DNA from: an uncultured Eubacteriales bacterium | GTDB taxonomy: Bacteria > Actinomycetota > Coriobacteriia > Anaerosomatales > JAAXUF01 | DNA: 64,000 nucleotides | NCBI GenBank assembly: GCA_964388455.1 | Contig: CAYMAN010000001.1 | Location: 27,158 to 91,157, forward strand | Reading direction: 5' to 3' | The notes under the pieces: generated by a model | The model's input: only the letters and a program-made list of their open reading frames with translations | Told to the model about the DNA's origin: nothing | The model's database searches: none | In this document: positions 5,680 to 62,597 of the stretch, piece after piece | Numbering within the stretch: the first letter of the stretch is position 1 | Layout of the letters: each line of letters opens with the position of its first letter | Program-made: the position numbers and the translations under genes

Positions 5680-5748
5680 CTAGGCGGTGCCGACCTCCGT
5701 GTTACCGGATACCGTCGGGACCAGTGCAGCGATGCAATTACTTCGCAC
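5680..5748 (-). CDS. candidate 22-aa small ORF (MRSNCIAALVPTVSGNTEVGTA); hypothetical
   Basis: GTG at 5748 with AAGGAGGTGA upstream (10 nt between GGAGG and GTG). Ends TAG 5682..5680. The minus-strand T-tailed terminator lies about 90 nt downstream. No homology recognised. Confidence 0.2.
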   Translation of the reverse strand: MRSNCIAALVPTVSGNTEVGTA

Positions 5749-5956
5749 TACTGGCTCACCTCCTTTTCAACAGCGGGTGCCGAAATGCGCCCTCGGGATT
5801 CCCCGTGCAGACATCGCTAGCGAGTGCCGTGCCGAGATTCACTCGGGCACGGGATTCGCTCCTTGCCCGTGCACGCGCGACTCCGCTCGCCGCCGTATGC
5901 AGGACCGCAGATTGGGTCCGGCTGTTGTTTCACCAGATGGGGACGGGACGAGGGCT

Positions 5957-6415
5957 ATGACCGATCCGGCATTCCAACCGAAGATACTGGGAATCCTCTG
6001 TACCTGGTGCTCCTACTCGGGGGCCGATGGCGCGGGTCAGTCTCGGACGGCGTATCCTCCCAACGTCAAGGTGGTCCGCGTCATGTGCAGCGGCCGCGTC
6101 GATCCCTCGTTCATCATCTCAGCTCTAGCCGACGGCGCGGACGGGGTGCTGGTCTGCGGCTGTCACCCCGGCGATTGCCACTACATCAACGGCAACTGCA
6201 AAGCCGCTGCGCGCATGACAGTGCTCTCCACGATGCTCGAGCAGCTGGGCATCGAGCCGGAACGCGTCCGCCTCGAGTGGATCAGCGCCTCAGAGGGCGC
6301 CCGCTACGCCGAGCTCGTCGCCGAGATGACCGAGCAGGTTCGCGCGCTCGGCCCGCTCTCGTGGAATCGCTCGGCCAGCAAAGCCGACACTGCCGACAAG
6401 GCGGTGTCGCTGTGA
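5957..6415 (+). CDS. mvhD: MvhD-type hydrogenase iron-sulfur (delta) subunit
   Basis: ATG 5957 inside track ORF 5687..6415. ILGILCTWCSYSGADGAG, MCSGRVDP and CGCHPGDCHY are typical of MvhD/FlpD. Confidence 0.85.
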   Translation: MTDPAFQPKILGILCTWCSYSGADGAGQSRTAYPPNVKVVRVMCSGRVDPSFIISALADGADGVLVCGCHPGDCHYINGNCKAAARMTVLSTMLEQLGIEPERVRLEWISASEGARYAELVAEMTEQVRALGPLSWNRSASKADTADKAVSL

Positions 6416-7395
6416 CCAAGCTGAAGCTGGGGATGTACTGCGCCGCCGGGTGCGGTGGCTGCGACATCTCGCTGCTCGAGGTACACGAGCACCTGCTCGA
6501 CATCGTCGCCGCGGCCGACATTGCGTTCTGGCCCGCTGCGACCGACTTCAAGTACGCCGACGTAGAGGCGATGGCCGACGGCGAGATCGACGTCTGCTTC
6601 TTCAACGGCGCTATCCGCAACGCCGAGAACGCCCACATCGCGAAACTCCTGCGCGCCAAGTCCAAGGTGCTAGTCGCTTACGGCGCGTGTTCGTCGTTCG
6701 GCGGGGTCCCCGGGCTCGCGAACCTCTACCCGATCCAGGACGTCATCGACCGCGCGTTCACCACGCAGTCGACCGATGCTCCTTCCGGCCAGCGCCCCTC
6801 GGCCACAGCGACCCACGCCGACGGCTCGAGCGTCGGGCTGCCCGCGATCGCTGGCACCGTCACTTCGCTGGGCGATCTGGTCCCTGTCGACTACACGCTC
6901 CCCGGCTGCCCGCCGTCCACCGACCGCGTCTGGGAAGTCGTGCAGGCGATCGTCGCCGGCGAGCTGCCCGGCGCGCCCGCGATCGTCGGCACCGGCGGCA
7001 AAGCCGTGTGCGATGACTGCCGCCTCGAGAAGCGCGGCACCCGCGTCGCGAAGTTCGTGCGCTCGCACGAGATCATCGCCGAGGACGGCCGCTGCCTCCT
7101 CGAACAAGGCATCGTCTGCATGGGCCCCGCCACGCGCTCGGGCTGCGGCGGCCAGTGCACCGACGCGCTCATGCCGTGCCGCGGCTGCTTCGGCCCCGCC
7201 GGCGACTCGCTCGACCAGGGCGCCGCGATGGTGGCGGTTCTCGGCACGCTGGTGGACTCCGAGGACGAGGCGGTCATCCGCCAGACCGTCGCCGAGGTCG
7301 TCGATCCCGCCGGCACCTTCTACTGCTTCACGCTCGCGACCTCGCTCCTCGGCCGCGCCAGAACCGCGAATCCCGCCGAGGAGGTGCGCTCGTGA
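6412..7395 (+). CDS. mvhG: [NiFe]-hydrogenase small subunit, Mvh (group 3c-like)
   Basis: GTG 6412 overlaps the mvhD stop (GTGA). MYCAAGCGGCDISLLE..., GACSSFGG, LPGCPP, and distal Cys clusters CDDC...C, CMGPATRSGCGGQC, CRGCFGP. Confidence 0.85.
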   Translation: MTKLKLGMYCAAGCGGCDISLLEVHEHLLDIVAAADIAFWPAATDFKYADVEAMADGEIDVCFFNGAIRNAENAHIAKLLRAKSKVLVAYGACSSFGGVPGLANLYPIQDVIDRAFTTQSTDAPSGQRPSATATHADGSSVGLPAIAGTVTSLGDLVPVDYTLPGCPPSTDRVWEVVQAIVAGELPGAPAIVGTGGKAVCDDCRLEKRGTRVAKFVRSHEIIAEDGRCLLEQGIVCMGPATRSGCGGQCTDALMPCRGCFGPAGDSLDQGAAMVAVLGTLVDSEDEAVIRQTVAEVVDPAGTFYCFTLATSLLGRARTANPAEEVRS

Positions 7396-8894
7396 CCCGC
7401 GTCAGTATCGATCCCATCACGCGTCTTGAGGGACACGGTCGCATCGACCTGTTCCTGGGTGACGACGGTGCCGTCAACGACGCCTTCCTGGTGATCCCGG
7501 AACTGCGCGGCTTCGAGAAGTTCCTCGAGGGCCGGCCCGTCGAAGAGATGCCGCAGATCACCGCTCGCATCTGCGGCGTGTGTCCCGAGGCGCACCACAC
7601 CGCGGCGGCAAAAGCGGCAGACGCCGTCTACAACGTGGACATCCCCGTCGCGGCTGAAATCGCCCGCCGCCTGCAGTACAACGCCTTCATGGCCGGCGAC
7701 CATGCGACGCACTTCTACGCGCTGGGTGGCCCGGACTTCATCGTCGGCCCGGATGCACCGGCTGCCGAGCGCAATATCATCGGCGTCATCAACAAGGTGG
7801 GGCCTGAGATCGCCGGCAAGGTCATCCGCATGCGCAAGGAGGCCCACGAGGTCGCAGAGATCCTCGGCGGTCGTCGGATCCATCCGGTGGGCATGGTGCC
7901 GGGCGGGATCTCGAAGCCGGTTTCGAAGGAGTCGGCGGCGCGGTTGCGTGAGATCGGCGACTACATGGTGCAGTTCGCGCGCGAGTCGCTGGTCATCTTC
8001 GACGCGCTCGTGCTCAAGCAGGACCGGCTGCTCAAGATGGTGCTCTCCAAGGCCTACTACAACCAGACCGCTTACCTCGCGCTGGTCAACAAGCAGAATC
8101 AGCCGGACGCCTACGACGGTGACGTGCGCGTGGTCGACGCCGACGGCAACGAGGTCGTGCGCTACCACCCCAGCGAGTACCTCGACCACATTGCCGAGGC
8201 GATTGTGCCGTGGAGCTACCTCAAGATGCCGTACCTGAAGAAGCTAGGCTGGAACGGCGTGTCCGAAGAAACGTCTCGGCAGATCATGCGCACCGGGCCT
8301 CTCGGCTCGCTGAACGCGAGTGATGGGATGCAGACGCCGCACGCGCAGGCCGAGTACGAGCGGTTCTACCAGACGTTCGGCGGCAAGCCCGTGCATCAGA
8401 CGCTGGCGTTTCACTGGGCACGCCTCATCGAGATGCTGCAGGCAGCCGAACTGGTCCAGCGCCTCGCCAACGATGAGCGCCTCACGTCGACCGACGTTCG
8501 CACGCTGCCCAGCGGCACGCCGCGCGAGGGCGTCGGCACGGTGGAGGCGCCGCGCGGGCTGCTCACGCACCACTACATCACCGACGAGAACGGCATCGTG
8601 CAGAAAGCGAACCTCATCGTCGGCACCACGTACCAGTACCCGGCAATCCAGCTGTCGGTGGCCAAGGCCGCCCGCGAGCTGGTGCGGCCCGGCGTCGAGC
8701 TCACCGAGCCGATCATGAACTTCATCGAGATGGCCTTCCGCGCCTACGACCCGTGCTTCGGCTGCGCGACCCATGCGCTGCCCGGCTCGACCCCGCTCGA
8801 GCTGCGCACGTTCGCGGCCGACGGCGAGCCTCTCGGCGGCCTGCGTCGCAACGGTGACGGCTCGCTCGAGCGCATCGAGGGAGGCGCGCGATGA
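7392..8894 (+). CDS. mvhA: [NiFe]-hydrogenase large subunit, Mvh (group 3c-like), Cys (not Sec) form
   Basis: GTG 7392 overlaps the mvhG stop (GTGA). N-terminal ITRLEGHG, RICGVCPEAHH, and C-terminal DPCFGCATH followed by a 39-aa extension that fits protease processing. Confidence 0.9.
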   Translation: MTRVSIDPITRLEGHGRIDLFLGDDGAVNDAFLVIPELRGFEKFLEGRPVEEMPQITARICGVCPEAHHTAAAKAADAVYNVDIPVAAEIARRLQYNAFMAGDHATHFYALGGPDFIVGPDAPAAERNIIGVINKVGPEIAGKVIRMRKEAHEVAEILGGRRIHPVGMVPGGISKPVSKESAARLREIGDYMVQFARESLVIFDALVLKQDRLLKMVLSKAYYNQTAYLALVNKQNQPDAYDGDVRVVDADGNEVVRYHPSEYLDHIAEAIVPWSYLKMPYLKKLGWNGVSEETSRQIMRTGPLGSLNASDGMQTPHAQAEYERFYQTFGGKPVHQTLAFHWARLIEMLQAAELVQRLANDERLTSTDVRTLPSGTPREGVGTVEAPRGLLTHHYITDENGIVQKANLIVGTTYQYPAIQLSVAKAARELVRPGVELTEPIMNFIEMAFRAYDPCFGCATHALPGSTPLELRTFAADGEPLGGLRRNGDGSLERIEGGAR

Positions 8895-10948
8895 GCGACA
8901 CGTTCGCGCCGATCGCAGGGTTTGCGCCCGACGCGCACGCTGCCGTCACGGGCTCCCCCGCCCCGGACGCCACCCCCGACGCCATCGTCTTCCTGTGCGA
9001 CTGCGGCCCCATCATCCGCGACCTCATCGACCTCGACGCGCTCACCACCGAGGTCGCCGCACTCCCCGGCGTCGCCAAGGTCGAGCGCCACGTCACCCTC
9101 TGCTCGTCTGAGGGCAAGGCGTTCCTCGCCGCCAAGCTCGCCGAGAACCCCGACCTCCTACCGGTCGTGGCCGCGTGCACGCCGCGCGAGCATGCGCAGG
9201 ACTTCGCCGAGGCCTGCGAGACCGCGGGTCGCAACCCGTTCACCATGAGCCGCGCCAACATCCGCGAGCAGGTCGCGTGGGTCACCCCCGACCGCGCCGA
9301 GGCGACCGCCAAGGCGCTCGACATGATCGCGTCGGCGGCGGCCCGCGTGGGCGAGCAGCGACCGCTCGAGGCCCCCGAGCTCGAAGCCGAGACCAGCGTG
9401 CTAGTGGTCGGCTCCGGTGTGGCCGGCATGACCGCCGCGCTCCTGATCGCCGAGTCCGGCCGCCAGGTCACGCTGGTGGAGCGCGAAGCAGCCATCGGCG
9501 GCAAGGTGGTGCTCCTCTCGGAGATTTATCCGGACATGGAGTGCGCCCCGTGCCTGCTCGAACCGCTGATGGACGAGGTGCTGCATCACCCGGGCATCGA
9601 GGTCCTTACCTACTCGGAAGTCGATGAACTGCTGGGTTACCTGGGCAATTTCACGGCGGTCATCCGCAAGAAGTCGCGCCACGTGGACGCCGACGGCTGC
9701 TACGGCTGCATCGACACCTGTTCGGGTGTATGCCCGGTGGGCGTACCCGACGCGTTCAACGTCGGGATGACGCAGCGTCACGCGATCCACATCCCGTTCG
9801 CCGGCGCGCTGCCCAACGCGGCTGTTGTCGATGAAGCGTCGTGCCTGCACTTCAACGGTGGCTCCTGCGATGCGTGCGTCAGCGCGTGTCCCTTTGGCGT
9901 CATCGGTCTCGACGGCGGCGACGAAGTTCTCGAGCGCCGAGTGGGCGCGGTCATCCTCGCGACCGGCTCGCAGCTCAAGCTCGACCCCGGCAGCGTCTAC
10001 GACCACCCCCGCGTGATGACCACGTGGGAGTTCGAACGCGTTCTGAATCCCGACGGCCCCACCGGTGGCGAGATCCGCCTGGCCGACGGCTCGACCCCCA
10101 AACGCATCGCATTCCTCCACTGCGCCGATGAGACCGGGTGTGCTCCTGCAGCCACCTGCTCGCAGACGTGCTGCCTGGCGCTCGCGAAGCAGATCATCGA
10201 GACCTCACACAAGCTTCCCGACGCTCAGCTCGCCGAGCTCGCGTTCGACCGCCAGCTCGGCGGCCCGCACTACAACCGTCTTGCCGCTGCCGAGGACGCG
10301 CCGGCAAATCTGCGCACCGTGCGTATGGCGATCGGCGACAGTCTCGCCGTGACCGCCGGTGCGAACGGCCGCGTGATCGTTGGCGTCAACCTCAAGGGCG
10401 GTCAGCGCACTGGCGACTTCGACCTCGTGGTGATGGCGGCTCCGCACGTCGGGGACTCTGGCGGCGTAGCACTCGCGGGTCGCATCGGCGTCGACGTGGA
10501 TGCGACGGGCTACGTGCTCGCTTCAAGCAAGATCCTCCGCCCGTTCGCCAGCCGCACCGACGGCATCTTCGTTGCCGGCTCGGCGCAGGGCGAGAAGAAC
10601 ATCGCAGCGGCGTCCAACTCGGCCGCGGCTACAGCCGGCGCGGTTCTCTCGGCGCTGGTTCCCGGCAGGAAACTCATTCGCGAGGCCACGACAGCGGTCG
10701 TCAACGACGCCATCTGCGGCGGATGCCAAGTGTGTATACTCGCATGCCCCTACAAGGCGATCTCGTTCGACGTCGACCAGAAGCGCGCGGTCGTCAACGA
10801 ACTCCTGTGTCACGGGTGCGGCACCTGTGCCTCAGCCTGCCCGTCCTCGGCGATTACGGCCAAGCATTTCACTGATGGCCAGCTATTTGCTGAGATTCAC
10901 TCCCTCGTCACACCGAATCACCGCGTATCAGTCACCACCAACCTGTAA
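8891..10948 (+). CDS. hdrA: HdrA-like FAD/FeS oxidoreductase (heterodisulfide reductase subunit A family)
   Basis: ATGA overlap with mvhA. FAD fold VLVVGSGVAGMTAALLIAESG. Four Cys clusters (CYGCIDTCSGVCP, CLHFNGGSCDACVSACP, CGGCQVCILACP, CHGCGTCASACP). Cys-containing N-terminal domain. Confidence 0.85.
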   Translation: MSDTFAPIAGFAPDAHAAVTGSPAPDATPDAIVFLCDCGPIIRDLIDLDALTTEVAALPGVAKVERHVTLCSSEGKAFLAAKLAENPDLLPVVAACTPREHAQDFAEACETAGRNPFTMSRANIREQVAWVTPDRAEATAKALDMIASAAARVGEQRPLEAPELEAETSVLVVGSGVAGMTAALLIAESGRQVTLVEREAAIGGKVVLLSEIYPDMECAPCLLEPLMDEVLHHPGIEVLTYSEVDELLGYLGNFTAVIRKKSRHVDADGCYGCIDTCSGVCPVGVPDAFNVGMTQRHAIHIPFAGALPNAAVVDEASCLHFNGGSCDACVSACPFGVIGLDGGDEVLERRVGAVILATGSQLKLDPGSVYDHPRVMTTWEFERVLNPDGPTGGEIRLADGSTPKRIAFLHCADETGCAPAATCSQTCCLALAKQIIETSHKLPDAQLAELAFDRQLGGPHYNRLAAAEDAPANLRTVRMAIGDSLAVTAGANGRVIVGVNLKGGQRTGDFDLVVMAAPHVGDSGGVALAGRIGVDVDATGYVLASSKILRPFASRTDGIFVAGSAQGEKNIAAASNSAAATAGAVLSALVPGRKLIREATTAVVNDAICGGCQVCILACPYKAISFDVDQKRAVVNELLCHGCGTCASACPSSAITAKHFTDGQLFAEIHSLVTPNHRVSVTTNL

Positions 10949-10969
10949 TCACCGAGAAAGGGAACGACC

Positions 10970-11194
10970 ATGGCTACAACTCACACGATCGACGCCAAAG
11001 GACTGCGCTGCCCGCAGCCGATTCTGCAGGTCATTCTGAAGCTGCCACAGATTCACGACGGCGATCTGCTCGTGGTCTCCGCCGACTGCGAGAGCTTCGA
11101 GGACGACATCCGCAGGTGGTGCACGCGCATGGACAAGACACTGCTCGGTCTCAACACGAACGGCGCGGCCGTCACTGCGCAGATTCAGTTCTAG
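10970..11194 (+). CDS. tusA: TusA/SirA-family sulfur-carrier protein
   Basis: 74 aa with the family's Cys-Pro-x-Pro motif: IDAKGLRCPQPILQV. Confidence 0.8.
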   Translation: MATTHTIDAKGLRCPQPILQVILKLPQIHDGDLLVVSADCESFEDDIRRWCTRMDKTLLGLNTNGAAVTAQIQF

Positions 11195-28182: not shown

Positions 28183-28581
28183 TTACTCGGCCGCAGTGAA
28201 TTCGAGTGCCACTGAGTTGATACAGTACCGCAAACCCGTCGGCTCAGGTCCGTCTGGGAAGACGTGCCCCAGATGTCCGTCGCACACGGCACACGTGACC
28301 TCGGTGCGGCTCATTCCAAAACTGAAGTCCTCGTGTTCGACAACCGCGCCCTCGCTTATCGGCGCCGAAAAGCTCGGCCACCCGCAGCCCGAGTGGAATT
28401 TGGTGTCTGACGAGAACAGCTCGGATCCGCATCCCGCACACGTGTAACGGCCGTCCTCGAAGTGGTCGGTGAACACACCAGAGAATGCGGGCTCGGTCCC
28501 GGCGCGACGCAGCACGCGGAACTGCTCGGAGGACAGGATCTCGCGCCATTCGTCATCTGTTCGCAGGAGTTTGTCTCGCAT
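28183..28581 (-). CDS. msrB: peptide-methionine (R)-S-oxide reductase
   Basis: SelR/MsrB signature: two CxxC pairs ([21 protein letters not shown]) and catalytic RYCINS. Start taken at ATG 28581 ([14 protein letters not shown]); 28611 is possible. Confidence 0.9.
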
Positions 28582-28744
28582 CGCGGTGCCTTTCGAGTGT
28601 GCGGCCGTCACTCATTCTATTCCCGTTGCGGGCGGCGTCATCCTCGGCACCCGAGTCGCCGCAGCCGTATGGTGGCGGCTGCGGTCTGCGGGTCAGGCCC
28701 GGTCGACGCCGGGGCAGGAGCTGATACTGAGCAGGACCCGGCGA

Positions 28745-29167: not shown

Positions 29168-29851
29168 CTATGCGCCCTGTCCGCCAACCGGAGCGGCGGA
29201 GCTCTCCTCACTGTTCGCGCTCGCAGCGCTCGTCGCGAGCCGTTTGCAACGCTCGAGCTCGTCGCGAAGGATGGGCGACGCGGGAACGGAGGTCTCCTCG
29301 TAGGCGAGGCTGAAGTCCGCGCAGAACTTCTGGGCCTTCTCGCGATACTGCGCGAGATCCTCCTCGGCCAGGCCGGTGTTGAAGAAGAGGCCTCGCTTGT
29401 AGTGGGTGAAGAGGCGCTTGGCCATCTCCATGGGGTCGCGGCCGTACTTGGCTGCGCGGTCAAGCTTGAGCTCCTTGATTACCATGTGCGCGCTGACCTC
29501 GGCCCAGCCGGGACTCATGAACCAGGTGCCGACCTCGTGCTCGATCTCTGCCGCGTAGCGCTCCGGGGTGAGCATGAACATGATGCAGTCGTCGTACGGC
29601 GGCAGCACGGTGGGCACGTTGACCAGCAGTTCGATGTCCTTGAGCGACTGGCAGTAGCCATAGCCGAGGAAGACCGCGTCGACCTTGCCCTCAAGCTCGT
29701 TGATCTGCTCGACGATGGCGTCGCGCATGCGCTCCGGGTAGATGTGCAGCGCCGCCTCGAGCCAGACGACCTCCGTGATGTCGGGGTCGTTCTCGATGAG
29801 CGCAGCAATCTCGTTCTTGATCATGTCGCAGGCGATGACGGCGATTCGCAT
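29168..29851 (-). CDS. DUF1638-domain protein
   Basis: 227 aa. MRIAVIACDMIKNEI...AVFLGYGYCQSL...YDDCIMFML. Recalled family association with corrinoid methyltransferase loci, not verified here. Confidence 0.7.
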   Translation of the reverse strand: MRIAVIACDMIKNEIAALIENDPDITEVVWLEAALHIYPERMRDAIVEQINELEGKVDAVFLGYGYCQSLKDIELLVNVPTVLPPYDDCIMFMLTPERYAAEIEHEVGTWFMSPGWAEVSAHMVIKELKLDRAAKYGRDPMEMAKRLFTHYKRGLFFNTGLAEEDLAQYREKAQKFCADFSLAYEETSVPASPILRDELERCKRLATSAASANSEESSAAPVGGQGA

Positions 29852-29875
29852 GTGTGGGGCCGCTTTCTGCGAGTG

Positions 29876-31501
29876 TCAGCCGGCCGAGCGCGGAAAGCGC
29901 ATGGCCGAGACGAATCGGGTCTGGAACTCCGGGTGCCCGGCGAGGTCGACGGCGGTCACGTGACGCGCGATCGACTCGGCGCGGCGACGGGTGGCAGTGT
30001 CGAGCAGCGCCATGAGCGTGCCGGTCATGGCGGTGTTTCCCGCGAAGGTCACGCGATCGTGCCATGCCGAGGGAATCATGCCCATGCGCACGATCGCAGA
30101 GGCCTTCACGTGGAAACCGAAGCCGCCTGCGATGATGAGCTCGTCGACGTCTGCCGCGTCCACCTCGGCGGCGTCGAGAAGCATGTCGATGCCTGAGGCG
30201 ATGGCCGCGTTGGCGAGCTGCACCTGGCGCACGTCACGTTGCGTGAGGAATACGCTGGGCGTGATCTCGAAGGCGCGGGTGCCCTCGCGCTCCGAGACGC
30301 GGGTGGCAAGGGGATGTGCGACGTCGCCGCGCAGTCGGCCGGAGTGGTCGAGGACGCCGGCGTCGAGGAGCACCGCGATGAGGTCGAGCAGGCCGCTGCC
30401 GCACAACCCGCGGGGGGTGGTGCCGCCGATGGTCTCGATCGCGAGGCAGCCGGAGTCGTCCAGCGACACGCGCTCGACGGCGCCCTCCTCGGCGCGCATG
30501 CCGTAGGCGATGCTGGCGCCCTCGAGCGCGGGGCCGGCGGCGGTCGACGCGGCGACGAGGCCGCTCGGGGTGCGCAGCACCATCTCGCCGTTGGTGCCCA
30601 GGTCGACCAGCAGGACCATGCGCTCGTGCTCGGCGATGTGGGTGGCGACGAGCCCGGCCGTGATGTCCGCTCCCACGAACGCGGAGATTCCCGGCAGCAC
30701 ATACACGCCAGCCGCCGAGAGACCCGCGAGACCGACCTCAGCGGCGGGGCGCTCCAGTGGATCGAGGAACGCAGGCTCGTAGGGCGCGATGCCGAGCGGC
30801 GCCGGATCGAACCCGAGCAGCAGGTGGACCATAGTGGTGTTGCCCGCGATGGAGACCTCTCGGACACGCTCTACGGGCTGGCCGATGGCGGCAAGCACTT
30901 CGCCCACCAGCGTCTCGATGGCAGCGGCGATCGGTGCGCGCAGCGACTCAGTGCCGTGCGCAGCCACGTGTGTGATGCGCGACATGACATCGTGCCCGAA
31001 GGGATGCTGCGGGTTGAGCGCCGACGCCGAGCCCAGCCGCTCGCCGGACTCGAGGTCGTGAAGCGCGACCACCACCGTGGTGGTGCCGATGTCGACCACC
31101 GCGCCCAGCAGCGGCCCATCGCCGACGATGCCGCGGGCGGACGGCGGCTCGATCGCGAGCTCGCCTTGCTCGCCGGCCTCCACGATGCGCAGTCCGGCCG
31201 CGCCGACAGGCGATCCGTCGAGGGCTCGCACGATCACGTCGCCCGCCACGCGCGCGCGACACGCCAGCCTGATCCCCGCCGAGAGGCTGTCCGCGCCCAA
31301 GAGCACGCGCTCGTCCGCTGACGCGCTGGCGAGCTCGCCCTGCGCCCTGACTGCGCAGCGGCCGCACGTCCCGAGGCCACCGCAAGGCGCGTCGAGCGCG
31401 ACCCCGCCAGCAGCTGCAGCGTCTTTGATTGTGGTGCCGAGCTCGACGAGGACACGAATCCCCGACGGCTCGAATGTGATTGTGGCAAATGGCTCTGACA
31501 T
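29876..31501 (-). CDS. reductive activator of corrinoid enzymes (RACE/RACo-type: 2Fe-2S ferredoxin domain plus ASKHA ATPase domain)
   Basis: 541 aa. N-terminal plant-type ferredoxin motif DAPCGGLGTCGRCAV...LACRARV. ASKHA blocks VVDIGTTTV and LLVDLGTNGEMV. Confidence 0.85.
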   Translation of the reverse strand: MSEPFATITFEPSGIRVLVELGTTIKDAAAAGGVALDAPCGGLGTCGRCAVRAQGELASASADERVLLGADSLSAGIRLACRARVAGDVIVRALDGSPVGAAGLRIVEAGEQGELAIEPPSARGIVGDGPLLGAVVDIGTTTVVVALHDLESGERLGSASALNPQHPFGHDVMSRITHVAAHGTESLRAPIAAAIETLVGEVLAAIGQPVERVREVSIAGNTTMVHLLLGFDPAPLGIAPYEPAFLDPLERPAAEVGLAGLSAAGVYVLPGISAFVGADITAGLVATHIAEHERMVLLVDLGTNGEMVLRTPSGLVAASTAAGPALEGASIAYGMRAEEGAVERVSLDDSGCLAIETIGGTTPRGLCGSGLLDLIAVLLDAGVLDHSGRLRGDVAHPLATRVSEREGTRAFEITPSVFLTQRDVRQVQLANAAIASGIDMLLDAAEVDAADVDELIIAGGFGFHVKASAIVRMGMIPSAWHDRVTFAGNTAMTGTLMALLDTATRRRAESIARHVTAVDLAGHPEFQTRFVSAMRFPRSAG

Positions 31502-31525
31502 TGAGGTTCCTCGGTGAGCGGACGG

Positions 31526-33595
31526 CTAGAGAAGTGGCGGACCGGATGCTGTGGCCACCACCGTGAGCTCGACGAAGACGTCATCGTCGGCACGTGTCTG
31601 GCGCGCCAGCACCTCGTCGTGGGTGAGCGACACGATGGCATCGGGGGCGCCAGCGGCGTGGGCGGCCGCGATCGCCGCCTCACTCGCGAGCTCTTCGGCA
31701 CGGCGCCGCGCGGTGGCGTAATCGGGGTAACGCTCACGCACGGCAGGCGTGATGACCACGAAGTTCTCGTCGGGTTCGGCCTTGACCTTGGCCTCGGCGC
31801 GCTCCAGCACACGTCCCGCGAGCGCGCCGTATGCGTTGGCGACCTCGGCATGCGGCGGGATGACAAGCTCCGAGGCGAGCAGCGCGTTCGCTCCCGGGAA
31901 CCACGCAGCGACCGGCGCACCCACCGCGACGAGCGGCACACCCAACCCGACCTGCACGCGCAGCACGCCGCTCCTTCCGGACGCGAGCTGATGCGTGAGC
32001 AGCCCGATCTCCGCCGAGGAGGGCTCGGTGCCGGCGGTGTCGGCGGCTAGCGCACGGGCAGCGAGCTCAAGCGCCAGCCGGGCGCCGACAGCCTCGCGCA
32101 CGCGAGCCGCGAGTGCGTCCGGCCGCAGCCGAGCGACGCTCGCGAGCAGGCGCAGCCCGAGCGTGGACGCCGCCGCGTCGCCCAGCGCGAGGTCTCCTGA
32201 AGCCGCGAGAACGTCGGTCGGAGTGAGCGCGATCTCCGCGAGATGCCCCGCACGCACGAGGGCGTCGAGGTCGATGAATGGCCCTCCAACACGCACGACC
32301 TCACCGATGTGCACCGCGCGGCCCTCGAGCAGCGCGAACACGTCGGACATGCGGGTTGAACTCTCGCGGTCCGGGCGGCTTCCGGGGCGCTTCACCAGCG
32401 TGAGGAAGAGAGGCTCCTCAGCCAGCTCGTCTTTCGACGCGAGCGCCGCGAACCGCTCAAGTTCGCCGAGGAGCTCGGGGAACTTCTCGGCGGCGGTGCA
32501 AAGTGGTACGGCTCGGTCGGGGCCGAGGGTGACGCGACCATCGGAGTCGACGCGGACTCGGCTGTCGCCTCCCAAGCCCACGGTGCGCACGTCGAGCGCC
32601 TGGACGCGCGTGCGCCAGCCGCCCACGAGCGCGCCCTCGGGGCTGACCTCGGGCATCCCGCCGGCGACGAACGCTATGTCGGTGGTGGTGCCGCCCATGT
32701 CGGCGACGATCGCGGAGGTGAGGCCGGAGAGCCGGCACGCGCCCACGACGCTCGCGGCGGGACCGGACAACACGGTGTCGACGGGGCGCAGGCGCGCGAC
32801 CGTCTCGGCGGTCAGAGAGCCATCGCCTTTGACGACCATGAGCGGCGCGTCGATGCCGAACTCGCCAAGGGTGGTGCGCACCGCGTCGAGCAGGTCGCGG
32901 ACGAGGGGCAGCAGGCGTGCGTTGAGTGCGGCGGTCGTGGCGCGCTCAACCATGCCGATGCGCTGCGAGAGCTCGTGACCGCAGACCACGGGTGCGGCGC
33001 ACGTGTTTGCGATCAGCGCGCGGACGGCGACCTCGTGCTCCGCATTCGCGACGCTGAAGAAGGCCGAGACCGCGAACGCGTCCACCGAGGAGGCCATGCG
33101 CGCGACTGCGGCCTCTGCGGCAGCGACGTCGAGGGGCGTGCGAAGCGAGCCGTCGGGGGCGTGAGCGCCGGCGATGACCGCCACGTCGGCAGCGGGTAGG
33201 CCGCCGGGCAGCGAGAACGTCGCGGGGTCAGGCACTGCGATGATGAGGCCGACGCGCGCACCCTTGCCTTCGACCACCGCGTTTGTGGCAAGCGTGGTCG
33301 ACAGCGACACGAGCTCGACGCCGGGCAGCAGACCCGCGTCGATCGCACCCAGCGCGTCGCGGATCCCGATGGCCAGATCCTCGCGCGTGGTGGGCCGCTT
33401 GGCCTTCGCGAGTATCTCGCCAGTGCCGAGGTCGACCGCGACCGCATCGGTGAACGTGCCCCCGGTGTCAATGCCCAGTCCCAGCGGACTCCGCCGCTGA
33501 GACTGGCTCGCTTCGAGCCGACGGCTGCGCCGCGGCTCAAGCTCGCCCCGAAGCTCTGCTATCGGGCCGCCCTGTGGGGCTTGCTTCTCGGACAC
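31526..33595 (-). CDS. hydantoinase/oxoprolinase A (HyuA)-family ASKHA ATPase, with no HyuB partner in the window
   Basis: 689 aa. GTG start 1 nt after the upstream stop. LGIDTGGTFTDAVAV, IVADMGGTTTDIAFV. A ~40-aa Arg/Glu/Gln-rich N-terminal extension makes the exact start uncertain. Confidence 0.8.
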   Translation of the reverse strand: MSEKQAPQGGPIAELRGELEPRRSRRLEASQSQRRSPLGLGIDTGGTFTDAVAVDLGTGEILAKAKRPTTREDLAIGIRDALGAIDAGLLPGVELVSLSTTLATNAVVEGKGARVGLIIAVPDPATFSLPGGLPAADVAVIAGAHAPDGSLRTPLDVAAAEAAVARMASSVDAFAVSAFFSVANAEHEVAVRALIANTCAAPVVCGHELSQRIGMVERATTAALNARLLPLVRDLLDAVRTTLGEFGIDAPLMVVKGDGSLTAETVARLRPVDTVLSGPAASVVGACRLSGLTSAIVADMGGTTTDIAFVAGGMPEVSPEGALVGGWRTRVQALDVRTVGLGGDSRVRVDSDGRVTLGPDRAVPLCTAAEKFPELLGELERFAALASKDELAEEPLFLTLVKRPGSRPDRESSTRMSDVFALLEGRAVHIGEVVRVGGPFIDLDALVRAGHLAEIALTPTDVLAASGDLALGDAAASTLGLRLLASVARLRPDALAARVREAVGARLALELAARALAADTAGTEPSSAEIGLLTHQLASGRSGVLRVQVGLGVPLVAVGAPVAAWFPGANALLASELVIPPHAEVANAYGALAGRVLERAEAKVKAEPDENFVVITPAVRERYPDYATARRRAEELASEAAIAAAHAAGAPDAIVSLTHDEVLARQTRADDDVFVELTVVATASGPPLL

Positions 33596-33596
33596 G

Positions 33597-34667
33597 CTAC
33601 GCCACGTTGTGGCCGTCGTAGCGACCGTACTTGCGGGCGGCCATGATCAGCGCGTCGATGTTCTCGGGCGGGGTGTTGATGGGCACTTCGCAGCCTGAGC
33701 CGAGGATGAAGCCCGCGGGCGAGTCGAGCATGCCTTCGCAGATGCCCTTGGCCTCGGCGTCGATCTGTTCGGGGGTGTTGTTGAGAAGGTTGGCGGGGAC
33801 GACGTTGCCCACGAGCACCACGCGGTGCCCGGCTGCTTCCTTGGCCTCGGCGAGGTTGACGGCGTCCAGGCTCCACAGGTCGAAGTCGGCGTCGAGCATG
33901 ACCTCCCAGTTGGGTTTGGTCTTGCCGCAGATGTGCAGGCCGGCGAGCGGGGCACCGGCAGCGTGCAGATGATCGGCGACGCGCTTGAGGTACGGCGCCA
34001 CGAACTCGGTGAAGTGCTTGGGCGACACGAGCGAACCCGAGCCGATGGGCTCGACCACGAACGGCAGGCCGCCGCGCTTGAGGATCGCGTCGATGAAGCG
34101 AATGTTGGCCTGTGTCGTCAGCTCGAGTAGCTCGTGGACCTGCGCTTTGTTCTTGTACAGGTCGCGGCTCATCACATCGAGTGGACGCAGCGCCGCCGCC
34201 GTAGTGAACGGGCCGCCCAGAACCACTGAGACGACCACCTCCCCGCCGACCTCCTTCACGCAGTGCTCGAGCGCCTCGAGGTAGATTGGCAGGCGGCCGT
34301 CCTTCTCGGGATCGGGCATGGTGATCTTGGAGAAGTCGAAGCCGTCCTCGAGCGGGAACACGTCGATCTGCGGCGCGTCCTCATCGAAGAACTTCATGGT
34401 GGTGCCCATGGACTCGGCGAGCGTGGAGGTCGTCGAGAAGATGGTGATGATGTCGTTGCCGTAGCGGCGGAACGCGGCGACGTGGGCCTCGCCCATGAGC
34501 TTGCCGCTGCGGTTGTACTCGCCCACCTTGATGCCGGTGACGCGCGCGGCGTGGTTCAGGATGAGCGGGAAGCAGGCGACGCGCTGCGGGTGCTCGCCCT
34601 TCAGGTAGCTGACGACGCGCTCGAGCGAGTTCTGGGTATCGGCGGGGATGTCGAATGTGGTGGTCAT
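33597..34667 (-). CDS. URO-D-family (MtaA/MtbA-like) corrinoid methyltransferase, copy 2
   Basis: ATG 34667 (MTTTFDIPADTQNS) inside track ORF 33597..34715. Zn-site-like motifs GLHICGKT and LGSGCEVP. Confidence 0.8.
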   Translation of the reverse strand: MTTTFDIPADTQNSLERVVSYLKGEHPQRVACFPLILNHAARVTGIKVGEYNRSGKLMGEAHVAAFRRYGNDIITIFSTTSTLAESMGTTMKFFDEDAPQIDVFPLEDGFDFSKITMPDPEKDGRLPIYLEALEHCVKEVGGEVVVSVVLGGPFTTAAALRPLDVMSRDLYKNKAQVHELLELTTQANIRFIDAILKRGGLPFVVEPIGSGSLVSPKHFTEFVAPYLKRVADHLHAAGAPLAGLHICGKTKPNWEVMLDADFDLWSLDAVNLAEAKEAAGHRVVLVGNVVPANLLNNTPEQIDAEAKGICEGMLDSPAGFILGSGCEVPINTPPENIDALIMAARKYGRYDGHNVA

Positions 34668-34761
34668 GGCCACGGGTCCTTTCGGCGTGGGTTCAGGTGC
34701 TCGCGGGCGATTCAAGTGCCGCGCCGGATGCGACCCGTTCGCAGGCCGCGGTACCGGCGGT

Positions 34762-35421
34762 CTAGGCAGCTGTGCTCGCGAACAACTCGGTCGCGACGCG
34801 CACGGCGCCGGCTGCGTTGTCGGCGTAACCGTCGGCGCCGATGCGGTCAGCGAACGAGCGGCTGATGGGGCCGCCGCCGATCATGACCTTGAAGCGGTCG
34901 CGGATGCCCTCTTCTTCGAGCATCTGGATGACCGAAGCCATGCCGTCCATGGTCGTGGTCATGAGCGTCGAGAGGCAGATGAGCTGCGAGTTCGTCGCCT
35001 TGGCCTTCTCGATGAACTCCGCGAGTGGCACGTCTCGGCCCAGGTCGTGGACCTCGAAACCGGCCACGTCGAGCATGATCTTGACCAGGTTCTTGCCGAT
35101 GTCGTGCGTGTCACCCTTGACCACGCCGATGACGCACCCGATCTTCTCGGCACGGTCCGAGGCCTTGATGTGTGGCTTGAGCACGTCGAGCGCGGCATAC
35201 ATCGCGTCCGAGCAGATCAGCAGCTCGGGGACGAAGTACTCCTCCTCGTCGTAGAGGCGACCGGCCTCGTTCATGCCCACGACGAGCCCGTGCGTGATGG
35301 CATCGTAGGCGTCGAGTCCGGCTTCGACCGCTTCGTGCGCGGTGGCCACTGCGAGGTCCTCGTCGAGCTCCAGTACCCCTTTGGCGAGATCGGCGAGGAT
35401 TTCTTCGTTCGAACGCGGCAT
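34762..35421 (-). CDS. cobalamin-binding corrinoid protein
   Basis: 219 aa. B12-binding DxHxxG motif (VVKGDTHDIGKNLV), with SxL (LSTLMTTT) and GG (MIGGGP) elements. N-terminal helical cap domain. Confidence 0.9.
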   Translation of the reverse strand: MPRSNEEILADLAKGVLELDEDLAVATAHEAVEAGLDAYDAITHGLVVGMNEAGRLYDEEEYFVPELLICSDAMYAALDVLKPHIKASDRAEKIGCVIGVVKGDTHDIGKNLVKIMLDVAGFEVHDLGRDVPLAEFIEKAKATNSQLICLSTLMTTTMDGMASVIQMLEEEGIRDRFKVMIGGGPISRSFADRIGADGYADNAAGAVRVATELFASTAA

Positions 35422-35467
35422 GCTCGTACCCTTCTCGGTTCGGTCGCCGGATCAGGCGGCCTGTGGT

Positions 35468-36535
35468 CTATGCGGTGGCGAGCTCGCGGAGCTCGACGGA
35501 TTCCTCGGATGGCAGCGTGCCGGAGACTACGTCGGCGATTGCACGGATGTTGGCAACGGGGGTGCGCGGGCCGATGCCGCACGCTGGTGCCACGATGTCG
35601 ACGCCGTCACGCATGCGGGCAGCGGCGACCTGGCGCAGCGTGCCTGCCTTGCCGTACTCGAGCAGGTACGTGCTCACGTTGCCCATGGTCACGTGCTCGG
35701 GCGCAAGCGCACGCAGCGTGCGGAAGGACACGTTGCTGTCGATGCTGATCGCCGGCGCGGAGATCTCGGCCAGTGCGCCGCGCAGTGCTTTCACATCCCC
35801 GCAGATGTGCACGATCGACAGCACGCCGCGCCCAGCGAAGTGGTCGACGATGCGATTCACGTACGGCAGCGCGAAGGCCTCGAACGCCTTGGCGCCGATG
35901 AGCTCGCCGGTGCCGCTCGGGTCGGCTATGCAGATGGTGTCGGCGCCTGCGTCCACGAGCGCGTCACCCAGCGCAATCGCGGCCTCGGCGGACACCTCGA
36001 GCAGCGCGTGCGCGGCGGTGGGGTCGCGGCGCATTGCTCGATAGAATTCCAGGGGATCGGCGAGCGATGTCGCCAGGGAGATCGGGCCGGTGAGGCTCGC
36101 AATCATGGGCATGTCGGATCGCTCGGCGACGAGCAGTCTCGTGGCCGATACGGCGACGGCAGCCCTGCCGCGCGTCGCGTCGAATGCGTCGAGGCGGTCG
36201 ACGTCGGCCAACGCATCGAGCGCGTACCCGGTGACTCTCGGCTCCGTCTTGGCGTCGCCCAGATCGACAGGCGCGCCCATTCCCTCGGCTTCGATCGTCA
36301 TGCAGAAGGGTGTGCCGAGATTCTCGACGCCTGCGACGTCCGCCATGCCGAGGACGAGGCGAGCCATGCTCTCGGCGTCGGAGTGTGCGCGGGGCCACGA
36401 CTCCCCCACCGCTTCCATCACGTCGGTGACGGCCATATTCATCATGCCACCGGGGCAGATGAACGGCGCGCGGTCCACGGGGGTTCGTGCAAGAACCGCG
36501 CGTAGTCGCTGCTTTGGGGTGATGGAGCTGGTCAC
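35468..36535 (-). CDS. URO-D-family (MtaA/MtbA-like) corrinoid methyltransferase, copy 1
   Basis: GTG 36535 (VTSSITPKQRLRAVLARTPVDRAPF, a family-typical N-terminus). The track start 36586 is a TTG. Zn-site-like motifs IVHICGDV and APACGIG. Confidence 0.8.
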   Translation of the reverse strand: MTSSITPKQRLRAVLARTPVDRAPFICPGGMMNMAVTDVMEAVGESWPRAHSDAESMARLVLGMADVAGVENLGTPFCMTIEAEGMGAPVDLGDAKTEPRVTGYALDALADVDRLDAFDATRGRAAVAVSATRLLVAERSDMPMIASLTGPISLATSLADPLEFYRAMRRDPTAAHALLEVSAEAAIALGDALVDAGADTICIADPSGTGELIGAKAFEAFALPYVNRIVDHFAGRGVLSIVHICGDVKALRGALAEISAPAISIDSNVSFRTLRALAPEHVTMGNVSTYLLEYGKAGTLRQVAAARMRDGVDIVAPACGIGPRTPVANIRAIADVVSGTLPSEESVELRELATA

Positions 36536-36627
36536 AGAGTTCCGTCCGTCGCTTATCCGGAGCCTGATAGGTCGAATAAGCAACAACTATTCCACACTTA
36601 TCGCACAAACGGAAGCGGCAGTGCGCT

Positions 36628-37356
36628 CTAGCCGATCGAACAGCCCACCCCACGGCCGCCATCTCGCACCATGGCGATCAGTCGGGATCGCCCGGCGTCG
36701 CTCAGCCCCAGATCAGCGATCTCGCCCTCGAGCTGCGCCTTCGTCCCGTCGCCAGCGACGTAGCCGTTCACGTGCGCGGCGGACGTGCTCTCGCGCAGCG
36801 CGGCCTCGTCATCGCCGAACATCGCGTTGAAGTCCGTCGCCAGCACGCGGTCATTTCGCAGATAGTACTTTTGGTGGTAGTCCTCGGCGTTCCAGAAGCG
36901 CTTGAGGGGCTCGATGCGTGTGGCGAGCGGGCGTCCACCGAGCACCGCCGAGAACCTCGCGGCCCGCTCCTCGGCGACTGCCAGTTGCTCAGCGTCGTGC
37001 GCGAGAATGACGGATGCGTACTGCTCCTTGTGCGCGACCCACGTGGGGTTGTGCGAGGCGAACGCGAGGTCCACCAGCTCCGAATAGGTGATCACCGAGG
37101 GCTCGAAGTCGACCTGGAAGCACTCGGTCTGATCTCGCAGGTCCCGATAGGTGGGGTTGGCGTAGTCGCCGCCGGCGTACCCGACCCGCGTGCGCCAGAC
37201 TCCTTCGACGAGCCCGAACCGGGCGTCAGGGGTCCAGAATCAACCGACACCGAACGTCGCCGTGGCGAGCACGCCGGGAACCTGCAGGTCCAGGGCCGGT
37301 ATCGCGAGCGGCTCGGGAGTGGCCGCCGGTTCTTGGGATCGAAAACCTCGGAACAT
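36628..37356 (-). CDS. msrA: peptide-methionine (S)-S-oxide reductase, probable selenoprotein (TGA 37242..37240 read as Sec)
   Basis: ATG 37356 with GAGAGGAGA SD. ...ATFGVG-TGA-FWTPDARFGLVEGVWRTRVGYAGGDYANPTYRDL..., in frame with track ORF 36628..37095. The TGA sits at the Cys of the MsrA GCFW motif. Later motifs: RFWNAEDYHQKYY. Confidence 0.7.
37207..37227 (-). other. putative bacterial SECIS hairpin
   Basis: mRNA GACGCCCGGUUCGGGCUCGUC begins 13 nt after the UGA. 3-bp lower stem, 2-nt 3' bulge, 4-bp upper stem, GGUUC apical loop at about +23 to +27 from the U of UGA. Confidence 0.45.
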
Positions 37357-37403
37357 GCTGTCTCCTCTCGTTTCCGACTTCTGGTGCAAGCGCCGCGCCA
37401 GCC

Positions 37404-55946: not shown

Positions 55947-56004
55947 ACCTGCGGTGTCAAGGATTAGCGCTCAACGGTCGCTCAGTACAGACAAGAGGTA
56001 AATT

Positions 56005-56280
56005 GTGCCGACAAGCGGAAACAGCAACCACTCACCCCGCATCACCGTGTTCACGAGCCCCTCGTGCCCGTGGTGCAAGGTCGCCAAGCGCTACATCGCC
56101 GAGAAGGGGCTGCAATTCCGGGAAGTGAACGTCATCGCCAACCCCAAGGGTCGCCAGGAGATGGTGCGTATGACGGGGCAGTCCGGAGTCCCGGTGATCC
56201 GGGTCGGCGAGCACGCGATGGCCGGCTGGAACGAGCGCGAGTTCGAGAAGCTGCTGAGCGGGAAGTTCAAGCAGCGCTAG
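56005..56280 (+). CDS. glutaredoxin-like small thiol-disulfide oxidoreductase
   Basis: 91 aa. GTG start. ITVFTSPSCPWCKVAKRYI (CPWC), GVPVIRVG. Confidence 0.8.
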   Translation: MPTSGNSNHSPRITVFTSPSCPWCKVAKRYIAEKGLQFREVNVIANPKGRQEMVRMTGQSGVPVIRVGEHAMAGWNEREFEKLLSGKFKQR

Positions 56281-62107: not shown

Positions 62108-62182
62108 TGGAGCGGGTGACCGGACTCGAACCGGCAACTTTCAGCTTGGGAAGCTGACGCTCTACCATTGAACTACACCCGC
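62108..62182 (-). tRNA. tRNA-Gly (anticodon CCC), CCA encoded
   Basis: GCGGGTG-TA-GTTC-AATGGTA-GAGC-G-TCAGC-TTCCCAA-GCTGA-AAGTT-GCCGG-TTCGAGT-CCGGT-CACCCGC-T-CCA folds as a cloverleaf by hand. Anticodon loop is TT-CCC-AA. Confidence 0.85.
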
Positions 62183-62282: not shown

Positions 62283-62432
62283 TTACGACTTGCCGATCTT
62301 GAAGATCTTGGTTCCGCATTCAGGACAGATGCCCTGGCTTGCCGGACGTCCGTTCTTCATGGTGATTTCCTGGGCGTCCTTCATTTCCCTCTTGGCCTTG
62401 CACTTAACGCAGTAGCCTTCCTTAGCAGCCAT
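62283..62432 (-). CDS. DUF5679-type zinc-ribbon mini-protein (49 aa)
   Basis: ATG 62432 with GGAGGTGA SD. MAAKEGYCVKCKAKREMKDAQEITMKNGRPASQGICPECGTKIFKIGKS (CxxC...CxxC). Confidence 0.6.
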   Translation of the reverse strand: MAAKEGYCVKCKAKREMKDAQEITMKNGRPASQGICPECGTKIFKIGKS

Positions 62433-62597
62433 TCGCGCAGTCACCTCCTTGTTCGATGCGATCTGGCAACGGCCGCACACCCGGGCAGGCATGGCCGTGG
62501 CGCTTTGATGGTCCCCTCGGGGCAGGAACTTCCTGCCTTCATTAGGAAATACTACAGAATCCAGCGCGGTTGTCACGCCTTGCCTATTCGGGAACTT

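Follow-up and report, generated by a model that had tools for sequence, protein, structure and literature searches.

Selenocysteine (Sec)-containing methionine sulfoxide reductase A (Sec-MsrA) is among the listed verified prokaryotic selenoproteins (PMC13188914). The closest described relative of the gene reported here is CoMsrA from Clostridium (Alkaliphilus) oremlandii OhILAs, a cysteine-free enzyme of 209 residues (1-Cys type) which carries Sec16 in a GUFWG motif, which surpasses its Cys version 20-fold in activity, which is recycled by glutaredoxin and not by thioredoxin, and the activity of which requires its helical domain (PMC4333827). Selenium incorporation and the superior catalysis of the Sec form were demonstrated for CoMsrA only (PMC4333827, citing Kim et al. 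2009). The Cys-type MsrA enzymes are recycled by thioredoxin (PMC13188914), and in Chlamydomonas a Sec-MsrA is described in which Sec stands in place of the catalytic Cys (PMC13188914, PMC9404770). Sec insertion sequence (SECIS) elements of bacteria in general consist of a stem of 6–8 bp and a loop whose conserved G lies about 20 nt past the UGA (PMC4605307). Here, we analyzed a stretch of 64,000 nucleotides (the window) from contig CAYMAN010000001.1 of an uncultured Coriobacteriia-like actinobacterium, in which an msrA gene on the minus strand is interrupted by a single in-frame TGA. An earlier note on this DNA had proposed that the gene is a functional Sec-MsrA rather than a TGC-to-TGA pseudogene, and purifying selection 5′ of the TGA, a TGA majority among the homologues and a conserved hairpin argue for this proposal, which, like the observation behind it, proved right in all tested parts. 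The locus very probably encodes a functional CoMsrA-type selenoprotein methionine-S-sulfoxide reductase A, composed of a PMSR catalytic domain and a C-terminal helical domain. The gene is a further member, from an uncultured Coriobacteriia-like actinobacterium, of an already known selenoprotein family.

Reading Frame and Domain Architecture of the msrA Gene

The gene and its product comprise the following features:

36628..37356, minus strand: full-length msrA coding sequence, 242 sense codons plus TAG stop, Sec (U) as residue 39
37361..37369, minus strand: Shine-Dalgarno-like sequence GAGAGGAGA, 4 nt 5′ of ATG 37356
37240..37242, minus strand: UGA at the catalytic position (G-U-F-W), putatively read as Sec39; TGA at the homologous codon in 151/163 loci
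36850..37263, minus strand: PMSR catalytic domain (PF01625), residues 32–169; E-value 9e-36, 123.9 bits against a cut-off of 23.7 bits
36676..36849, minus strand: helical domain at the C-terminus, as is typical of selenoprotein MsrA, residues ~170–227
36628..37095, minus strand: mis-called truncated open reading frame (ORF) of 155 amino acids with an internal GTG start, without the catalytic residue

The frame opens with ATG 37356..37354, closes with TAG 36630..36628 and yields a protein with the N-terminus MFRGF, and its sole in-frame interruption is TGA 37242..37240 in the context ...TATFGVG-TGA-FWTPDARFG.... Translation bears out the earlier statement that the frame from ATG 37356 runs on into ORF 36628..37095, the GTG start of which is internal. 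In locus L083, a relative with 80% amino acid identity, the equivalent start Met opens the sequence MFQSFRS.

For the Pfam search a translation with Cys placed at residue 39 was used. This residue lies within the PMSR domain and aligns with Sec16 of CoMsrA, and the TGA occupies the catalytic Cys codon of MsrA, as had been proposed. The top seven sequence matches in the Protein Data Bank (PDB) are all C. oremlandii MsrA (4u66, 7c13, 4lwj–4lwm, and 4w8c; best E-value 1.7e-41), in which query residues 30 to 225–227 align with chain residues 7 to 200–202 of 209 at an identity of ~40% over 196 aligned positions. Cys-type MsrA structures score 1e-16 to 1e-24 in the same search and align only over the catalytic domain. 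The Cys-type enzymes of Escherichia coli, bovine and Mycobacterium tuberculosis (PF01625; E-values 1e-16 to 1e-20) share this domain and a GCFW-type site with the window protein, but they have Cys for Sec, lack the helical domain and carry their resolving cysteines in a different C-terminal region.

The likeness to CoMsrA comprises the architecture of PMSR and PF20939 domains, the Sec in GUFW near the N-terminus and the conserved active-site Tyr, Glu, Gln-Tyr and His...Tyr residues. In the window protein these are Y70, E78, Q112, Y113, H161, and Y164, which are invariant or nearly so among the homologues and which align to Tyr47, Glu55, Gln89, Tyr90, His137, and Tyr140 of CoMsrA (residues from PMC4333827). 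Five further invariant residues, N197, Y199, G202, G217, and L218, all lie within the region of the helical domain. The window protein differs from CoMsrA by an N-terminal extension of 23 residues, hence Sec39, by GUFWT instead of GUFWG, and by two cysteines, Cys79, which adjoins the catalytic Glu, and Cys239 of the C-terminal tail, where CoMsrA is cysteine-free. The hosts differ as well, being a high-GC Coriobacteriia-like actinobacterium here and a Firmicute in the case of CoMsrA. Among named homologues of the PurA encoded in the window, the top-scoring one, labelled Coriobacteriia bacterium, has 87% identity, and the remaining ones, from metagenome-assembled genomes labelled Coriobacteriia or "HGW-Actinobacteria", have 82–87%.

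Conservation of the UGA Codon and of Both Halves of the Gene

Homologous loci were obtained by a single scan of genome contigs and another of metagenome contigs (160 loci) and by four database-protein look-ups, which added five loci, two of which carry the same protein. For the codon tally one locus was counted per distinct sequence, giving 163 other loci and 164 with the window. The catalytic codon in these 163 loci is TGA in 151 (~93%), TGC or TGT in 11 and TCA in one; with the window included, TGA stands in 152/164. Orthologues were thus found to alternate between Sec and Cys codons at exactly the catalytic codon, as the earlier note had led us to expect. Carriers of TGA belong to the Coriobacteriia and other Actinomycetota, Anaerolineales, Dehalococcoidia (Chloroflexota), Planctomycetota, Desulfobacterota, Syntrophales, Thermodesulfovibrionia (Nitrospirota), NC10, Synergistota, and Clostridia, and they include the isolates Desulforamulus aeronauticus DSM 10349 (L020) and Wukongibacter sp. 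M2B1 (L029), while two cyanobacteria and one archaeon of the Thermoplasmata are among the Cys forms. The earlier statement that Sec-MsrA is known in a few organisms is right in that the form is known, but "few" does not hold for the helical-domain subfamily, in which Sec is the majority state across many phyla.

This distribution also bears on the possibility that a sequencing or assembly error made the TGA in the msrA record. Sequences derived from metagenome-assembled genomes may contain errors, and nothing more specific speaks for one here. The same TGA with its flanks recurs in L001 (SRR13723396) and L002 (SRR13723397), Logan assemblies made independently from two sequencing runs of this organism, and in 150 other loci, so that an error is already refuted and its probability is negligible.

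The sequence 5′ of the UGA is conserved as coding sequence. The homologues share the peptide E-T-A-T-F-A-L-G in front of the UGA, and in the corresponding codons positions 1 and 2 are nearly invariant whereas the third positions have an entropy of 1.4–1.9 bits, which argues that the frame is translated up to the UGA. A comparison of the window gene with L083, which also carries TGA, gave a ratio of non-synonymous to synonymous substitution rates (dN/dS) of 0.22 for the 37 comparable codons 5′ of the UGA and of 0.14 over 203 codons 3′ of it, at a dS of 0.66–0.88. These values indicate purifying selection both 5′ and 3′ of the UGA.

A pseudogene, in which a nonsense mutation from TGC or TGT to TGA killed msrA and after which no more than a C-terminal fragment would be translated from a start within the gene (e.g., the ORF of 155 amino acids), would be consistent with annotation pipelines calling only this fragment, with the lack of visible Sec machinery in the window and with the single-base changes which the catalytic codon undergoes in relatives (TGT, TCA). 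However, TGA is the majority state, it is common to the window and L083 across a dS of roughly 0.7–0.9 without any other stop or frameshift in either half, and neither the Shine-Dalgarno sequence nor the ATG nor any of the 38 N-terminal codons is damaged. The hairpin described below matches the homologue consensus in its core, and a fragment devoid of residue 39 and of the N-terminal strand would be left without the catalytic centre. Since both halves, the start signals and the TGA were kept across the divergence from L083, a pseudogene is very unlikely.

A Conserved Hairpin Downstream of the UGA

Downstream of the UGA the transcript would fold into a hairpin with the following elements, all derived from the predicted fold and numbered from the U of UGA (+1):

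37206..37228, minus strand: predicted SECIS hairpin, +15..+37, −10.7 kcal/mol
37228..37225 with 37209..37206, minus strand: lower stem, 4 bp
37224..37220 with 37216..37212, minus strand: upper stem, 5 bp, positions 19–23 with 27–31
37211..37210, minus strand: 2-nt bulge on the 3′ side
37219..37217, minus strand: apical loop G24 U25 U26

The earlier note had described a hairpin GACGCCCGGUUCGGGCUCGUC (37227..37207) about 13 nt past the UGA with a GGUUC loop at +23..+27, and both its coordinates and its fold agree with our analysis. Written out, it reads G16-A-C-G-C-C-C-G-[G24-U25-U26]-C-G-G-G-C-U-C-G-U-C36, which puts the loop G 20–21 nt 3′ of the UGA. The hairpin resembles the reference SECIS element of bacteria, that of E. 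coli fdhF, in lying within the coding region just past the UGA and in exposing GGU/GU in a small apical loop at a distance of ~20 nt. G24 and U25 of the window hairpin correspond to G23 and U24 in the loop of fdhF. The two elements differ in stem sequence, in the loop, which in the window has 3 nt (GUU), or 5 nt (GGUUC) once the closing G-C pair is open, and in the bulge, which is UC on the 3′ side here and U17 in fdhF; binding of the window hairpin by SelB is a prediction. The Sec-MsrA of Chlamydomonas belongs to a different subfamily and has a eukaryotic-type SECIS in the 3′ untranslated region, not in the coding region.

Comparison among homologues carries the case for the hairpin. The 11-nt core CCCGGUUCGGG (= CCCGGTTCGGG) is identical in 84/136 Sec forms, the others having CCCAGUUCGGG, CCCAGUUUGGG or CCAGGUUCGGA, and the core of the window equals the consensus. 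As an 11-mer the core is not rare, since 2.55 chance matches with at most one mismatch are expected in the window, and therefore only its position and its conservation across homologues carry weight. Within the core, the entropy of third codon positions is 0.17, 0.00, 0.62, and 0.41 bits at +21, +24, +27, and +30, versus 1.96 and 1.95 bits in the Gly and Pro codons just 5′ and 1.6–1.9 bits further 3′. Synonymous sites are thus frozen solely inside the core, which points to a constraint at the RNA level. Compensatory changes were counted pair by pair on the explicitly named structure. At pair 19–31, 40 sequences have U-A and 39 have G-C (Ala GCC...Leu CUC versus Ser UCC...Ser AGU), and at pair 23–27, 79 have G-C and 18 have A-U (CGG-UUC versus CAG-UUU). 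The covariation score of 0.185 exceeds the 0.100 ± 0.008 of column shuffles, which are uncorrected for phylogeny and none of which reached it (0/500), and it also exceeds every slid register, a control that retains the relatedness of the sequences. A minority variant, UCC AGG UUC GGA GUC, folds in a shifted register with a 6-nt loop and presents GGUU at the same distance.

The hairpin is also associated with the state of the catalytic codon. Codon +6 ends in C in 148/152 Sec forms versus 3/11 of the Cys forms (p 7e-9), GGG stands at codon +9 in 139/152 versus 5/11 (p 4e-4), and the median minimum free energy of the segment +14..+38 is −10.4 kcal/mol in Sec forms versus −4.2 kcal/mol in Cys forms (p 6e-4), all of which indicates that the older Cys forms have lost the hairpin. 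Judged by these comparisons, the hairpin is the SECIS element of the Sec-MsrA homologues and exceeds what chance would yield. Of the points raised for it beforehand, conservation and compensatory changes are present among 136–152 Sec forms, and a significant stability of the single sequence is not.

Sec, Cys, and Ser at the Catalytic Codon of Close Relatives

Some close relatives of the window gene have left the TGA state. L169 (protein P0003, 70% identity) has TGT together with a hairpin identical to that of the window, L166 (P0001) has TGT with a slightly degraded hairpin, and P0002, encoded in two assemblies of the European Nucleotide Archive (ENA; L167:10001-10741 and L168:3718-4458), has TCA (Ser) at the catalytic codon and has kept the hairpin. 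P0002 would be either a naturally inactive MsrA or the product of a very recent change from Sec to Ser. The gene order in L167 is that of the window, with purA, a glycosyltransferase gene, purD, a radical SAM gene, purE, a pilin-like gene, an ArgZ-like gene and msrA, followed further on by msrB and dsbD. The sequences of these relatives indicate that Sec is the ancestral state of the subclade to which the window gene belongs; the window itself has both the TGA and the hairpin.

Sec Machinery, Genetic Code, and Evidence Against Sec Insertion

Several results weigh against Sec insertion or against the assignment to the CoMsrA type. A tRNA-Sec was absent from the 64-kb window, in which ARAGORN and Rfam found only tRNA-Gly, and SelA, SelB, and SelD were found neither in 50 ORFs scanned with Pfam nor in the inspected gaps between them. 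A scan of the window for coding-like in-frame TGAs yielded no real one and hence no second selenoprotein gene; each of the HdrA-like, hydrogenase, glutaredoxin (CPWC), and MsrB genes encodes a Cys form. As L169 (TGT) and L167 (TCA) still have the hairpin, its presence alone is no proof of present-day Sec insertion. Single-sequence stability was not significant compared with shuffles in this GC-rich context (25 nt, z −1.55; 66 nt, z −0.24), and the case for the hairpin therefore rests on comparison. Rfam gave no SECIS family and only chance matches, both for the whole window at gathering thresholds and for 37150..37280 at E ≤ 10, a null which is uninformative because no Rfam model matches the hairpin. 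RNAalifold, applied to an alignment of 118 sequences, returned a weak consensus from invariant columns and missed the hairpin, which is attributed to register heterogeneity in the lower stem combined with invariance of the upper stem. Finally, the family PF20939 (Selenoprotein methionine sulfoxide reductase A, helical domain) matched with an E-value of 8.5e-4 and 19.5 bits, which is under the cut-off of 23.7 bits; nonetheless, the phmmer alignment to CoMsrA spans the helical domain of the latter (145–209). Beyond the window, 1.76 Mb of related loci contained no tRNA-Sec or Sec machinery near msrA by ARAGORN and strict motif regular expressions, which were possibly too strict. We infer that the source genome carries selABCD and that Sec is really inserted.

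The stop codons of 49 well-supported ORFs in the window, which has a G+C content of 65%, are TAG in 32, TGA in 10 and TAA in seven cases. TGA is usually the dominant stop at 65% G+C, and the dominance of TAG may be a trait of the lineage. A reassigned code was rejected: TGA is the normal stop of 10/49 genes, and the code is therefore standard.

Reassignment is one of several ways in which the UGA could be read as something other than Sec, i.e., as Trp or Gly by a changed code, as Trp or Cys by near-cognate read-through, or as Cys by the Sec machinery at low selenium. Conservation demands full-length translation but leaves the inserted residue unspecified, and the database homologues P0009, P0099, P0113, and P0118 show W at the Sec position. 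In the W entry that was checked, P0009 (L170:184-903), the DNA has TGA and the stored protein disagrees with the translation by table 11, so that the W is an artefact of a gene caller that apparently used a TGA=Trp code. No other conserved gene of the window has an in-frame TGA, the position takes only Sec or Cys in the homologues, Trp or Gly would abolish catalysis, and the SelB signal is a dedicated and conserved hairpin whose loop contains a G. A reading other than Sec consequently has a very small probability.

Proposed Mechanism and Additional Cysteines

From the known bacterial Sec pathway we infer the following mechanism. Translation would begin at ATG 37356, and at UGA39 the hairpin 13–35 nt downstream would present its small apical loop G24 U25 U26, which would recruit SelB-GTP-Sec-tRNA(Sec), so that Sec would be inserted in place of termination by RF2. 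The ribosome would then proceed to TAG 36628 and release an enzyme of 242 residues with Sec in a G-U-F-W active site, where the Sec would attack the sulfoxide of Met-S-O.

How the oxidized Sec would be resolved may differ from CoMsrA, as two cysteines are encoded in addition:

37120..37122, minus strand: Cys79 (TGC), adjoining the catalytic Glu78, found only in the Coriobacteriia-like subclade
36640..36642, minus strand: Cys239 within GVGCSIG of the C-terminal tail, a putative resolving residue

Directly behind the catalytic Glu, 15/136 Sec forms carry Cys and most carry Thr or Ser; a tail Cys occurs in 24/134 complete Sec forms, and 87/134 have no Cys at all. With Cys79 and Cys239 the window protein falls outside the 1-Cys type, which has no Cys besides the catalytic Sec. 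That either of them acts as a resolving cysteine is speculation, although it could be so. The subclade including the window gene would then be a multi-Cys selenoprotein MsrA in which Cys239 of the flexible tail or Cys79 resolves the selenenic acid to a selenenylsulfide and in which recycling is performed by thioredoxin or by a Cys-type glutaredoxin-like protein, a model which we regard as tentative and rather improbable. If true, it would set the enzyme apart from the cysteine-free, glutaredoxin-dependent CoMsrA and would constitute a mechanistic variant of a known selenoenzyme and not a new system.

A small glutaredoxin-like protein with a CPWC site is encoded at 56002-56280 (+), 19 kb from msrA. 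As CoMsrA is recycled by glutaredoxin, this protein is a possible reductant for the window MsrA; it is the only glutaredoxin in the window and a Cys form.

Genomic Neighborhood

Eight kb downstream of msrA lies a gene for a Cys-type MsrB (SelR domain, 7.6e-51) at 28183-28611 (−). The region 29168-36586 (−), between msrA and crcB/msrB, is occupied by a corrinoid-dependent methyltransferase cluster with two URO-D/MtaA-like genes and genes for a B12-binding corrinoid protein, a hydantoinase-like protein, a RACo reductive activator, and a DUF1638 protein. The cluster is absent at the same position in the relatives L167 and L169 and therefore looks like an insertion. At 5684-11194 (+), genes for MvhD-like, MvhG-like and NiFe-hydrogenase large-subunit-like proteins are followed by those for an HdrA-like flavoprotein with 4Fe-4S domains and for TusA. 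Some anaerobes make HdrA and Mvh/Vhu subunits as selenoproteins, whereas all members of this cluster are Cys forms without an in-frame TGA. A small ORF at 62283-62597 (−) encodes a C-terminal CxxC...CxxC zinc-ribbon-like motif (...CVKCKAKREMKDAQEITMKNGRPASQGICPECGTKIFKIGKS) and adjoins tRNA-Gly(CCC) at 62108-62182.

Annotation of the Gene and Implications

The structure, the catalytic advantage and the existence of Sec-MsrA are already established, and the present gene opens no new mechanism or biological question. The set of homologues comprises ~150 Sec forms from at least eight phyla with a very uniform SECIS core (CCCGGUUCGGG, loop GUU) and, in addition, recent, hairpin-bearing converts from Sec to Cys and from Sec to Ser, and it offers clean material for testing predictors of bacterial SECIS elements and for studying Sec/Cys exchange.

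The main value of the finding is the correction of the annotation. Gene callers split or truncate msrA, as the earlier note had foreseen: the product of 155 amino acids is already public as P0004 in the NCBI and Logan collections (99% identity over the shared part), in the Logan assembly L001 of the same organism the N-terminal piece of 38 amino acids is called as a gene of its own, and in the mechanical ORF list a second piece, upstream, terminates at the TGA. Many database homologues begin at MWRTRVGY and are truncated calls as well. The public protein is hence a fragment lacking the catalytic residue, and most database homologues are truncated or mistranslated with W. Functional and metabolic inference for these anaerobes therefore overlooks both an active enzyme of antioxidant repair and an indicator of selenium use.

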